A stretch of 63,808 bases of DNA, counting the filler, from Collodictyon triciliatum (lineage: Eukaryota): the NCBI GenBank assembly GCA_043381765.1. It is 29 parts of 29 records of this genome, joined end to end, with 100 filler letters (N's around TTAATTAATTAA, not from the genome) between each part and the next. Parts side by side here need not be neighbours in the genome. Positions count along the whole stretch, not along the records: positions 2,209 to 4,316 come from JBHJMP010009495.1; 28 more parts are not named here. One strand, given 5' to 3'. The notes beneath the pieces were generated by a model. The model did not search any database. It had not been told where the DNA came from and saw only the letters and a program-made list of their open reading frames with translations. The translations under genes were made by a program, and so were the position numbers. Positions 21 to 4,622 of this stretch are shown in pieces; positions within the stretch are counted from its first letter, which is position 1; every line of letters starts with the position of its first letter.

Positions 21-1211
21 CTTGTTGCAGCTGATGCTCAGGTATGTGATATTTGTCATGCGCGTGATGTTGGGTGGAAGCGCAGAGATGTTCATTCCGT
101 AAAAATTCAGCGATTCAAAGTGGATTTGGGTTGCGTTCGGTGTCCAGTCTGGCTTCAGCATATCTGCATCCTATTTGTTATTTTTAGTATTCTTCGTTTT
201 TTTTTAAAAAAAAAACTTTTTATTTTATTATTGTATTACTATGACTTACTGGTACTTCGTATAGCTGCAACTTTCGGATGTGTTTTTTGTCTGCGCTTTT
301 GTTCCAGCACGGCAGGTTCGTGATTCCACGCGGTGCACGTTTGATGTTTATTTTGCCTCCATACTCGATGTAGAGATACTTCAGATTTCTGAGTGCCGTG
401 ATTTGCGGTGGAAGCTCCTCGATCTGCACACATCGTTGTTAGTCACTTTTCTTTCATAAAAAATAAAAAACAACAAAACACTTACAGGGTTGCTGTGAAC
501 AATAAGCACTTCGAGTCCCGTCAACCGCGATATTTCTGGCGGCAGCGACGAAAGCTGGTTGTTTTGAACATTAAGGTACATGAGTCCCGTCAACCGCGAT
601 ATTTCCGGCGGCAGCGACGAAAGCTGGTTGTTACCAACACCAAGCACTTCGAGTCCCGTCAACTGCGATATTTCCGGCGGCAGCGACGAAAGCTGGTTGC
701 TACTAACACTAAGCAACGTGAGTCCCGTCAACCGCCATATTTCCGGCGGCAGCGACGAAAGCTTGTTTCCATAGACATTAAGGTGCTTGAGTCCCGTCAA
801 CCGCCATATTTCCGGCGGCAGCAACGAAAGCTGGTTGCCACCAACATGAAGCCACGTGAGTCCCGTCAACTGCGATATTTCTGGCGGCAGCGACGAAAGC
901 TGGTTGTTTTGAACATCAAGGTACATGAGTCCCGTCAACTGCGATATTTCCGGTGGCAGCAACGAAAGCTGATTGACAAAAACATCAAGAGACTCGAGTC
1001 CCGTCAACTGCGATATTTCCGGCGGCAGCGACGAAAGCTGGTTTCCACCGAGCGACAACTTCACCAAGCCTGGCAGATCCCAGACACCAGGCGGCACAGA
1101 AGTCAGATTTTTAATATGGAGACTCAGCGCTGTGTGCTTTTCGAGCTCCGCTACGCTGCTGCCACCGACGATTTCTCGCAGCTTCTCGGGACGGGCGGCG
1201 CGATCAGCCAT
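21..1211 (-). CDS. Leucine-rich repeat protein, 5' part (3 exons, runs off contig)
   Basis: ATG at 1211 (MADRAARPEKLREIVGG). Exons 1211-486, 423-250 and 170-21 have GT-AG boundaries and keep frame. Eight 23-aa LRRs of the form LSSLPPEISQLTGLxxLxVxxNQ, plus degenerate LRRs (IEELPPQITALRNLKYLYI; ISALPPNITRMTNITYLSISCNK). Confidence 0.9.
486..1037 (-). repeat. Coding tandem array, 8 x 69 bp (LRR units)
   Basis: A near-invariant 42-mer GAGTCCCGTCAACTGCGATATTTCCGGCGGCAGCGACGAAAG starts at 513, 582, 651, 720, 789, 858, 927 and 996 (exact 69-bp period). The copies are separated by variable 27-mers. Confidence 0.97.
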
Positions 1212-2108
1212 GGCGGCGGAGGGGGACGGAAAGTGGTTGTGACGCTCTCTGAGGAAACCGGAGACGAATGAGTCGAGTTTTGTGTGAGCAGGTTGCGCAG
1301 TGTTTATTTGTTTGGTGTCGTATTGCTTGGGAATGGGTGAAGGTGACAGGTTGCAGATAACTGGTTGCGGTAGAAAGAAAAGCAGGAAAGTGAAGAGGGA
1401 CGAATCAACTGCGAAATAAATAGCAGAGATTCGGAGGTGCAATGGGGTTTCGAGCGTCGATAGTAAGGATAGCGGAGATAGCGGCGAAAACTGGTTGTGG
1501 CAGAAAGAAAAAAAGGTTGATTTTGAAGACTTTTAATGAAAATAACATGAAATACACAATAACTGGAAAATAAAAAAGTTTTGGCAAATTTCGACAAAAT
1601 CAAACAAAAAACATAAGATAAGACAAATTATGATTCAATAACATAAGACTTACAATATGCATCGCGCGTGGGCGGCAGAATGAAGCGGAAATTTTTGCCA
1701 AAATTCTGAAGAAAAATGGCAAAGTGGGATAATGACTCGTGAGAAAGCTTCGTGCGTGTCTGATTTGTAACGAAATAAAAGAGAAAATTCTGAAGACAGA
1801 AAACAAAAAAAAAACATATTGAAGTGGCAAAGTGAAGAGAAGACTTACTTGAGAGGCTTCGTGCGTGTCATAGTAAAGACACTGCATTATTCAGCCGAAT
1901 GCAAGTTGAAGGTTGTTAGAGTCTCGTGTGTGCTCGCACATGTGTGAGTGAAGCTTAAAAGACGACTTGAGGAAGGCAGTCGAGACAAAAAAACACTGCT
2001 GCTTGCTTGGTTGGTTGCTGGCTGCTGCTTCAAGCTGCTTCGCGCATCACGCGCGCGAAAAAAGGGGTGCCAACCTTTCTCTAGCTTTTGGATCATTGAA
2101 CGTGGAGC

Positions 2109-2208: not shown

Positions 2209-2350
2209 TTAGTTAGTTTCTTATTTAGTTTCTTATTTAGTTTCTTATTTAGTTTCTTATTTAGTTTCTTATTTAGTTTCTTATTTAGTTTCTTATTTAG
2301 TTTCTTATTTTATTTAATATACGTGTGAACCATACTTGTAACTATTAATC

Positions 2351-4123
2351 ATGATAGTGCTAGGGAAGAGAAGGTCTATAGTTCAAAAGAATTATGATAT
2401 CTACAAAACATCAGGTCTACCTCCAATCTTGCGGGATTATAAAATATTTGAAGATGCTGCATTTGAGGTAAATGAAGGCTCAAAGTTCATTTTGAAAGTA
2501 ATTGAATGTTAACGCAGGATAAGAAAAATGGCATTACATAGCTATATCTTTATTCCCCCAAATCAAAGTCCAAACAATATTTTAAACCCGTAACCTCCGA
2601 CCCAACACAATAATTATCTTTTCTTCTTTTTCCTTTATTCAACACAATGATATTCTAAATAAATCAAATATCAAAATATTTTCATATTTATGAATTTGAA
2701 GGTTCCTCAAAACCAGTTGTTTTGATTGTAGAATTTGGGCTGCCTTGCGTGGACTCTTTCAAGATTGGATTTACTTCACTCCGGTATAATTCAAGATACA
2801 GAATATAAAATTCCCTTGGAATTTTGGGAAGACATAGAATGCTTTGAATCCGTGATATTTGCCACTGGTCATATTGGTAATTTTCTGCTTGAAATGAGTA
2901 TTCGTTAATACTCCAATTGGAAGAGGACTATGTGCAGATTATGATACCACGAACGTTTTCTTTCAATAAATACGCAACATATCAAACATATATGTATTAC
3001 ACAGTTAATTCCAATTTGCGAGAATATTATGGGTAAAGCTAAATATACAAGGCTCTTTCGAGTTGCTGCCGACGCTGATGAGTAGAATGGGACAACCCCT
3101 GGTGGCCGCATACCAACCCTTGTCTAACAAGTTAGTAGACCATCATCTTAAAAAGATTAGATCTGCTCACGCAATACTTGTAGAGGTATCTCCTTCCTAT
3201 GAAAAAAATGTATCTGGCATCAATACGAAATTAATAAAACACTAAATCACTTAAAATATCAAAATTTTTGCACTGTTTTCTGTTCCTGCTTCTTTTATTT
3301 TGCTTTTAGATTTTCTTCGCCACTATTTGAGAATTTAGAAACGTTTTGCTTTGTATGAACAACTTATGAGTGTGTATATTTCTACACATAAACTAACTAC
3401 GTAACCTGCATCGCCCAGACTGGTGATTGTTTCCAGCAACTCTTAAACTACTCCGAATCGGGTGTCCATATTGGATTGGTCACTGACCAGAGGGCACACC
3501 GCAATCCAATAAACGTATCCTATCTACGGTTGCTTCGTACTGGACTATTTTATTAAGTAACCTCATGACGCTTTTCTAGATATCCTTCCTTGGTGTAGAG
3601 ACCTCGACACACTCTGGCTTTGCAAATTTACAAATCATCACAGGTGTTTGTTTTGACAGTAATATCAATACCCGTGCAGACAAATTATACTTCACATTCC
3701 AATAACAAATTAAGACAAAAAAATGAGTCTTCGAATTTAGGTGTGCCTTTTTTTTTCTTTTTTCTTGAAACAATTTTTGATAAACTTAACATACCACGAA
3801 CTTCAACTCATATTTTCAAGGAAAACCAATTTGGTTCGTTGCACTCCTTCGTAATAGAGCAAACTTGTCAGAAAAGCCATTCCGGCTTTTCATGTGTCGA
3901 ATACGTGTAAGCTTGTTTTTTTTAGTGCACTTTTATGATGAATATTTTAAAAAAAAAAATTGGGAAACTATTATTAATCTCCTCAACGCTGGGCTAAACC
4001 GACGATTATATATTTCATTCCCAGACGCATCCAAAGATATGTGACCCTGCCAAAAGGGCCCTAGCCATCACACAGGAATACTACACAATTCTTGAACGCC
4101 TGCTGTGTCAGCACCCTGAACAG
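2351..4123 (+). CDS. Lipid A late acyltransferase family protein (LpxL/HtrB/LpxM-like, Lip_A_acyltrans), 7 exons, partial
   Basis: Exons ~2351/2358-2467, 2732-2876, 3052-3185, 3419-3514, 3580-3643, 3821-3906 and 4025-4123 are all GT-AG and frame-consistent. Spliced motifs appear in family order: KRRSIVQKNY, FENLG, VIFATGHIGSFELL (H-x4-E dyad), AAYQPLSNKLVDHHLKKIR, IGLVTDQ, ISFLGVETSTHSGFANLQIITGKPIWFV, ITQEYYTILERLLCQHPEQ. The final exon (expected W-x-H-R-R-W) lies beyond the contig end. Confidence 0.85.
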
Positions 4124-4622
4124 GTGAATATATTTCTCAGAACTGTAATGGCATGTGGCATATAGTAACATTTGCTGAGGTTGCCAATGACCTGTTAGCT
4201 TTCCTTTTTTTTTTCTATTTTTCTTTTTTTCTTTTTTCTTTTTTCTTTTTTCTTTTTTCTTTTTTCTTTTTTTCTTTTTTCTTTTTTCTTTTTTCTTTTT
4301 TCTTTTTTCTTTTTTCNNNNNNNNNNNNNNNNNNNNNNNNNNNNNNNNNNNNNNNNNNNNTTAATTAATTAANNNNNNNNNNNNNNNNNNNNNNNNNNNN
4401 NNNNNNNNNNNNNNNNAAGAATAAAAAGAATAAAAAGAATAAAAAGAATAAAAAGAATAAAAAGAATAAAAAGAATAAAAAGAATAAAAAGAATAAAAAG
4501 AATAAAAAGAATAAAAAGAATAAGTTCAAAAGCAACCAGGAATAATCACATTTGATTTTCCTCTGACAATCCCCTTCTTATGCAATAGAAGATTTTTCAT
4601 AACTGTGTAAATCATGAGATAG

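Follow-up and report, generated by a model that had tools for sequence, protein, structure and literature searches.

Introduction

In Escherichia coli, LpxL, LpxP and LpxM are the lauroyl, palmitoleoyl and myristoyl transferases that act on Kdo2-lipid IVA, and LpxL and LpxM are anchored in the membrane. PatA, which acylates phosphatidylinositol mannosides, belongs to the same superfamily, and in LpxL, LpxM and PatA a His/Glu pair serves as a charge relay on the hydroxyl of the acceptor. Late acyltransferases for lipid A count as bacterial enzymes, and they are not known from the plant Raetz pathway. Here, we describe an intron-containing gene at positions 2351-4123 (+) of a 63,808-base stretch of DNA (hereafter the window), whose joined product is, as judged by profile comparison, a member of the LpxL/HtrB family (PF03279, LABLAT) and is homologous to it between about residue 37 and residue 247. 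Very probably, the locus represents a portion of a genuine nuclear gene that is transcribed and encodes a very divergent member of the lipid A late-acyltransferase superfamily (LpxL, LpxM, LpxP, PatA). It adds to a known family a new member that is unusual in its divergence and its wealth of introns, and whose host is unexpected.

Plants set an example of eukaryotic nuclear genomes that carry bacterial genes for the lipid A pathway. The published account describes nuclear lpx genes in Arabidopsis, rice and others, comprising six or more of the nine Raetz-pathway genes, and leaves the product of the eukaryotic lipid A pathway unclear (PMC3087551). Unlike these plant carriers, the host of the gene described here is not known as a plant or alga. 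No report of a eukaryotic LpxL-family gene was found in the full-text literature searched, which leaves most subscription journals outside, and database entries may exist. A spliced and expressed family gene in a eukaryote offers a concrete handle either on lipid A-like acylation or on the co-option of this fold for another membrane lipid.

Gene structure

Seven exons between 2351 and 4123, all on the + strand, were joined by coordinate into 741 nt, giving 247 codons without a stop. The six introns between them (264, 175, 233, 65, 177 and 118 nt) all run from GT to AG, which bears out the seven in-frame GT-AG exons proposed in the first-pass annotation. The guanine-plus-cytosine (GC) content is 0.428 in the exons and 0.29-0.39 in the introns.

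Exon 1 (2351..2467) consists of 39 codons from an ATG, carries the KRRSIVQKN motif and is followed by a GTAAAT donor at 2468; an in-frame TAA at 2339 lies just 5' of this ATG. Intron 1 (2468..2731; 264 nt, GT..AG) is a prediction only. Exon 2 (2732..2876) ends with ...FATGHI and the first base of a Gly codon, and carries the predicted catalytic His86. Intron 2 (2877..3051; 175 nt), which is removed in RNA, falls inside the Gly88 codon and interrupts the H-x4-E motif between GHIG and SFE. Exon 3 (3052..3185), the most conserved exon, carries SFE with Glu91, YQPLSN and KIR. It is followed by intron 3 (3186..3418; 233 nt, GT..AG), which is predicted and is present unspliced in environmental DNA, and by exon 4 (3419..3514) with GLVTDQ. 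Intron 4 (3515..3579; 65 nt, GT..AG) is removed in polyA RNA, as are intron 5 (3644..3820; 177 nt), which is GT..AG with the cut read two places rightward, and intron 6 (3907..4024; 118 nt, GT..AG). Between these lie exon 5 (3580..3643), with SFLGVETST, and exon 6 (3821..3906), corresponding to a variable part of the LABLAT family. Exon 7 (4025..4123) ends with LERLLCQHPEQ, and a GTGAAT donor and the start of a seventh intron then run into a (CTTTTTT)n repeat up to the contig end (4124..4316, +).

The model is partial at both ends because the 2.1-kb contig that holds it (2209-4316) ends in repeats. At its 5' end, a tandem 12-nt repeat, (TTAGTTTCTTAT)n, is read directly in the sequence (2209..2310, no strand assigned); the assembly breaks in this repeat, so any upstream exon lies off the contig. 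The 3' end is formed by the (CTTTTTT)n repeat. Reading through past exon 7 in frame meets a stop at 4163 and does not reach the W-x-W-x-H-x-R-W tail typical of the family; the last exon, which would encode this tail, lies off the contig. The start of the model corresponds to about family position 45-60; the N-terminal 45-60 residues and the C-terminal W-x-W-x-H-x-R-W/F tail are both absent. The protein of about 250 residues proposed earlier is thus recovered as an open join of 247 codons that represents only part of the product, both ends of the family domain being missing.

The window consists of 29 contigs of 2095-2146 bases each, roughly sorted by decreasing length and connected by linkers of 44 N, TTAATTAATTAA and a further 44 N. 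Because these are unrelated small contigs, adjacency in the window says nothing on synteny, and the acyltransferase gene has no gene context. A common organism for all of them is based on composition only; the 3-mer profile of the acyltransferase contig correlates at r of at least 0.91 with those of 23 of the 28 other contigs. Many contigs of the window terminate in microsatellites.

When six-frame pieces of the window were compared with the family profile, the exon 3 piece was the only one significant alone (25.9 bits), and no second acyltransferase copy was detected within the window. A longer contig carrying the gene was sought in Joint Genome Institute (JGI) metagenomes with an exact 30-nt pattern from exon 3, which gave 0 matches, and exon 2 peptides searched against JGI metagenome contigs gave 590 pattern matches and 0 relatives.

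Splicing in environmental transcripts

In the run index, six runs with a metagenome label, two RNA runs among them, contained small shares of the words sampled from the window. Four of the six (X1, X2, X4 and X5) were aligned and provide the evidence used here; runs X7-X10 contained next to none of these words. The evidence consists of assembled contigs, which show that a spliced form exists and not its abundance.

An RNA contig from a freshwater metatranscriptome (X4) joins 2876 to 3052, skipping 175 nt; the shorter side of the join measures 67 nt, and there are 0 mismatches. The same contig covers exon 2 positions 2771-2875/6. A second RNA contig, from the polyA library of a separate study (X5), makes three joins with 0 mismatches (3514 to 3580, 3643 to 3821 and 3906 to 4025) and covers 3482-3514, all of exons 5 and 6, and 4025-4061. 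Across these two metatranscriptome studies, the RNA joins match the predicted GT..AG borders exactly at four of the six introns (2, 4, 5 and 6). The RNA cover stops short of exon 1, introns 1 and 3 and both gene ends, and gives no evidence either way on them; out of the six junctions put forward in the first-pass annotation, those of introns 1 and 3 accordingly stay predicted.

The unspliced form was found in DNA. Contigs of run X1 cover 3132-3415 free of gaps, which takes in the greater part of intron 3, and at the flank of exon 7 DNA contig X2 spans 3999-4149 unspliced, so that the genomic form occurs at 100% identity in two further environmental studies. The runs with identical pieces of the gene are labelled freshwater, subsurface and plain 'metagenome'.

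The locus is a transcribed, spliced nuclear gene of an AT-rich eukaryote. Since introns are removed in polyadenylated RNA, the gene is eukaryotic and simple bacterial contamination is excluded, a conclusion that the earlier annotation had drawn from the predicted introns and that now stands on four introns removed exactly in RNA contigs. A contaminating bacterial sequence, or an assembly artefact that mimics a split gene, could be suspected from a 2.1-kb contig with simple-repeat flanks in a fragmented assembly. Its probability appears vanishingly small, given the precise removal of four introns at GT..AG in RNA contigs of two studies, the recurrence of the intron-containing DNA in two further environmental runs and a base composition that fits the bulk of the assembly.

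Family membership

Surrogate family profiles were made from proteins picked by PF03279, and for this gene the curated Pfam model itself was applied to single exons only. PF03279 was run over 121 Pseudomonadota genomes and matched in 119, from which 70 regions were taken to give 76 family open reading frames. Against the profile of these 76 frames, the joined protein scored 76.9 bits (E 1.9e-21, Z = 24,736, the size of Pfam); the best score among 1000 shuffles and the reversed sequence was 12.6 bits. An alignment of five scaffold proteins with exon pieces 2, 3, 4, 5 and 7 (A5) retrieved 26,530 family members at E <=0.001 from 1.84 billion representatives. The best 150 of the 26,530, to which the listed matches correspond, are scaffold-like bacterial proteins and do not tell whether there are closer or eukaryotic relatives. 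The 144 of the 150 that are shorter than 400 residues were combined with the 76 frames into a 220-sequence profile, against which the joined protein scored 83.4 bits (E 2.1e-23).

Other routes to a profile were of less use. The exon pieces came out scattered when MAFFT aligned them with the E. coli paralogues (A1) or, in A4, with two scaffolds, and both alignments were rejected; A5 was usable. Genome contigs scanned with an alignment of the E. coli paralogues yielded 80 loci, all of them close LpxL relatives that were 67-100% identical and nearly all enterobacterial, and added no diversity.

Each exon was also compared by hhalign with a 14-sequence family alignment (A6), and the matches follow one another in order along the family: exon 2 at columns 95-143 (E 6.5e-5), exon 3 at 145-185 (probability 94.8%, E 5.1e-8), exon 4 at 195-216 (E 0.021), exon 5 at 223-239 (E 0.026) and exon 7 at 271-300 (E 3.2e-5). 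Exons 1 and 6 alone gave no hhalign match to A6. Removing exons 1 to 7 one at a time lowered the family score by 1.9, 19.6, 50.7, 23.0, 26.8, 12.5 and 10.6 bits, respectively, and the losses of 10.6-50.7 bits indicate that exons 2-7 are each supported. Exon 1 is the least certain. L-INS-i aligns it to the RR..I...N region of the family, and the main support for the predicted exon is this motif-level alignment together with the open frame and the donor site; alternatively, the exon could be internal, with entry via a nearby AG. Together, the two profile scores and the ordered exon matches uphold the LpxL/HtrB assignment made in the first-pass annotation.

The five best single matches of the joined protein (P0134, P0159, P0157, L115 and L120) have PF03279 as their only Pfam match, at 176-201 bits. 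Some bacterial family members differ in architecture: P0152 and P0178 (585-600 residues) contain two tandem LABLAT domains, and other listed representatives of 622-1147 residues have a LABLAT domain fused to further sequence.

Alignment A6 also matches the structures 5KN7 and 5KNK ('Lipid A biosynthesis lauroyl acyltransferase') at 139 bits, and the structures 5F2T, 5OCE and 7OJT ('Phosphatidylinositol mannoside acyltransferase', PatA) at 60 bits. As A6 matches both groups of structures, the joined protein would by transitivity lie in the same superfamily. Exon 3 searched directly against PDB sequences gave 0 matches at E up to 10.

The first-pass annotation had named an ordinary LPAAT-type acyltransferase as the reading that would overturn its own, and this candidate was rejected. 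Proteins of the PlsC/AGPAT type (PF01553) are likewise H-x4-D/E lipid acyltransferases, yet they have no detectable similarity to the joined protein. Four E. coli PF01553 (PlsC-type) proteins scored <=5.0 bits against the LABLAT profile, the joined protein scored negative bits against the same four, and no exon had a Pfam match; the comparison was made with these four proteins, and tafazzin was not compared.

Conserved residues and predicted activity

The motifs listed in the first-pass annotation were each located in the joined protein, in the order given there and with H-x4-E split by an intron: KRRSIVQKN at residues 6-14, GHIGSFE at 85-91, YQPLSN...KIR at 108-124, VTDQ at 153-156, FLG..T at 167-173 and LERLLCQHPEQ ending at 247. 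In the catalytic H-x4-(D/E) motif, His86 occupies the invariant H117 column of A6 and Glu91 the nearly invariant E122 column. Among the invariant family columns covered by the model, seven of nine retain their residue (H, N, R, D, E, P and Q), His86 and the Asp of VTDQ included, and among the nearly invariant ones six of nine, including Glu91. The downstream motifs Y-R-P..N, R, D-Q, F-F-G..T and P-E-Q are collinear with those of the family, with two substitutions.

The described proteins closest to this gene are bacterial LpxL-type proteins of about 290 residues (L115, L120 and P0134), which are the best pairwise matches of the joined protein at 35-50 bits. They share with it a collinear arrangement from RR..I...N to PEQ that includes H-x4-E, Y-x-P..N, R, DQ and F-x-G..T. 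The present gene differs from them in its six spliceosomal introns, and it has Gln in place of the Arg of Y-R-P and Leu where F-F-G has its second Phe. Its contig includes neither the hydrophobic N-terminal region nor the W-x-W-x-H-x-R-W tail of these proteins. The E. coli K-12 enzymes LpxL, LpxP and LpxM match PF03279 at 418, 406 and 383 bits, and the catalytic His and Glu of the joined protein line up with theirs, whereas there is next to no pairwise similarity (9.1, 5.6 and 2.3 bits, with LpxP best at 9.1).

We infer that the product is an active acyltransferase. In the proposed mechanism, a charge relay of His86 and Glu91 would activate a hydroxyl of a membrane glycolipid or lysolipid, and the activated hydroxyl would attack the thioester of acyl-acyl carrier protein (acyl-ACP) or acyl-coenzyme A (acyl-CoA), as in LpxL, LpxM and PatA.

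A decaying relic of an old transfer, still transcribed and spliced although the enzyme no longer works, is a very unlikely alternative to an active enzyme. Two of the nine invariant and three of the nine nearly invariant covered columns are altered, exon 3 has no relative among the longer proteins of a 5.8-billion-protein collection (one candidate, none scoring), and the terminal branch is long, as described below; all three would suit decay. They are set against 247 codons that run over seven exons without a stop or frameshift, correct splicing in polyA RNA, the retention of His, Glu, Asp-Gln, Arg and Pro-Glu-Gln, and the contribution that each of exons 2-7 still makes to the family score.

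Divergence and possible substrates

Several observations weigh against the reading of the locus as a transcribed gene for a member of the lipid A late-acyltransferase superfamily. The identity of the joined protein to its nearest relatives is 21.7-24.7% over 227-241 aligned columns, compared with 33-48% among those relatives themselves, and phmmer gives it at best 49.6 bits for a single domain. The seven single exons gave no family in Pfam or NCBIfam, the one hit being a chance match of exon 2 to PAT1 (E 0.31). Conserved positions are altered (Arg to Gln in Y-R-P, the second Phe to Leu in F-F-G, E83 to T and G100 to P), which could reflect relaxed constraint. Exon 1 and introns 1 and 3 are without RNA support. 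No transmembrane (TM) helix was detected in the 247 residues (maximum Kyte-Doolittle 19-residue average 1.23); since the model begins only near family position 45-60, it may lack an upstream exon, and a TM helix may lie off the contig. Finally, the sample behind the phylogenetic tree was made up of Pseudomonadota and the 150 best representatives, and is without PatA-type, Bacteroidota and chlamydial members.

In this tree (FastTree, 221 tips, 203 columns), the joined protein has a terminal branch of 2.35 substitutions per site, the median being 0.60, and it branches off with support 0.0 at the base of a clade of 174 members. Alignment and tree thus present the joined protein as an outlier, a very divergent putative family member on a very long branch.

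The substrate of the predicted enzyme may be sought in two directions. If the host had a Raetz-like pathway in an organelle, the enzyme could attach a secondary acyl chain to a molecule resembling Kdo2-lipid IVA. Exactly such acylation is performed by the best-known members of the family; the tree distance is smaller to the LpxL-like group of about 290 residues (3.6-3.9) than to E. coli LpxL, LpxP and LpxM (4.8-5.3), and one relative in the former group is named 'KDO2-lipid IV(A) lauroyltransferase' by its source. We nonetheless consider this role rather unlikely: the extreme divergence and the altered conserved residues suggest a changed role, the family also includes enzymes that do not act on lipid A, such as PatA, and the placement in the tree is without support. 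The fuller scenario, in which a freshwater protist of an unsampled lineage expresses a late lipid A-type acyltransferase that would, if the early Raetz enzymes were present, complete a lipid A-like glycolipid in an organelle membrane, seems unlikely. If true, it would mean a eukaryote that finishes a pathway thought to be completed only in Gram-negative bacteria.

There is about an even chance that the protein was instead recruited for another glycolipid, a lysophospholipid or a sugar-lipid, in a PatA-like manner, and it may then be peripheral rather than TM-anchored. Such a recruitment is consistent with a catalytic pair that is retained while conserved residues on the substrate side are altered, with 247 residues that contain no TM segment and with a long branch that fits a functional shift; PatA itself is an example of the same fold serving other acceptors. 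The N-terminus is probably incomplete, however, so that a TM helix may sit off the contig, and the comparison set held no PatA-type sequences.

Origin of the gene

The coding GC content is 0.428 and that at third codon positions (GC3) is 0.417, inside the range of the other coding pieces of the window (0.39-0.49). The gene would have come from bacteria, long enough ago to gain six spliceosomal introns and the base composition of its host, which looks like a poorly sampled eukaryote. The description of the gene as long-resident in the first-pass annotation agrees with an old gene in its six introns, host-like GC content, 22-25% identity and branch length of 2.35, and the age itself is not dated.

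Other features of the window

The other contigs of the window carry several recognizable coding segments, and an Rfam scan of the whole window gave no match. At 381-1532 (-), an open frame of 383 residues encodes leucine-rich repeats of about 23 residues (LRR_8, E 4.2e-27); the contig of this frame has a GC content of 0.456 and a 3-mer profile unlike that of the window bulk (r 0.70). The single-exon frame at 13663-14874 (-) encodes an NHL-repeat protein, or six-bladed propeller (PF01436, E 2.7e-15), whose closest relative is a protein from the Diphylleia rotans transcriptome with 38% identity at 91% query coverage.

In two GC-richer contigs, 24319-26421 (0.46) and 37536-39637 (0.50), both strands carry long frames that are open in several phases and are made of a recurring peptide-like unit (...MPNVDEVCFTQDPQR...). 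The composition of these two contigs is the furthest from that of the acyltransferase contig (r 0.68 and 0.27), and they may represent a satellite or repeat family.

In an open frame at 22653-23048 (-), the last part of a protein kinase domain runs on into the first part of an adenylate/guanylate cyclase domain, with weak Pfam matches that are both under the curated cut-offs. A fragment of an RNase H domain lies at 19217-19570 (+) (PF00075, E 3.7e-7), on a contig that opens with a simple repeat. The segment at 61991-63565 (+) contains a TatD-type DNase gene of about five exons, with introns of roughly 100-150 nt that resemble in size those of the acyltransferase gene. Its exon 1 matches PF01026 (E 6.4e-12), and the sole match of this exon among the longer proteins searched is a nematode TATDN3 with 33% identity.

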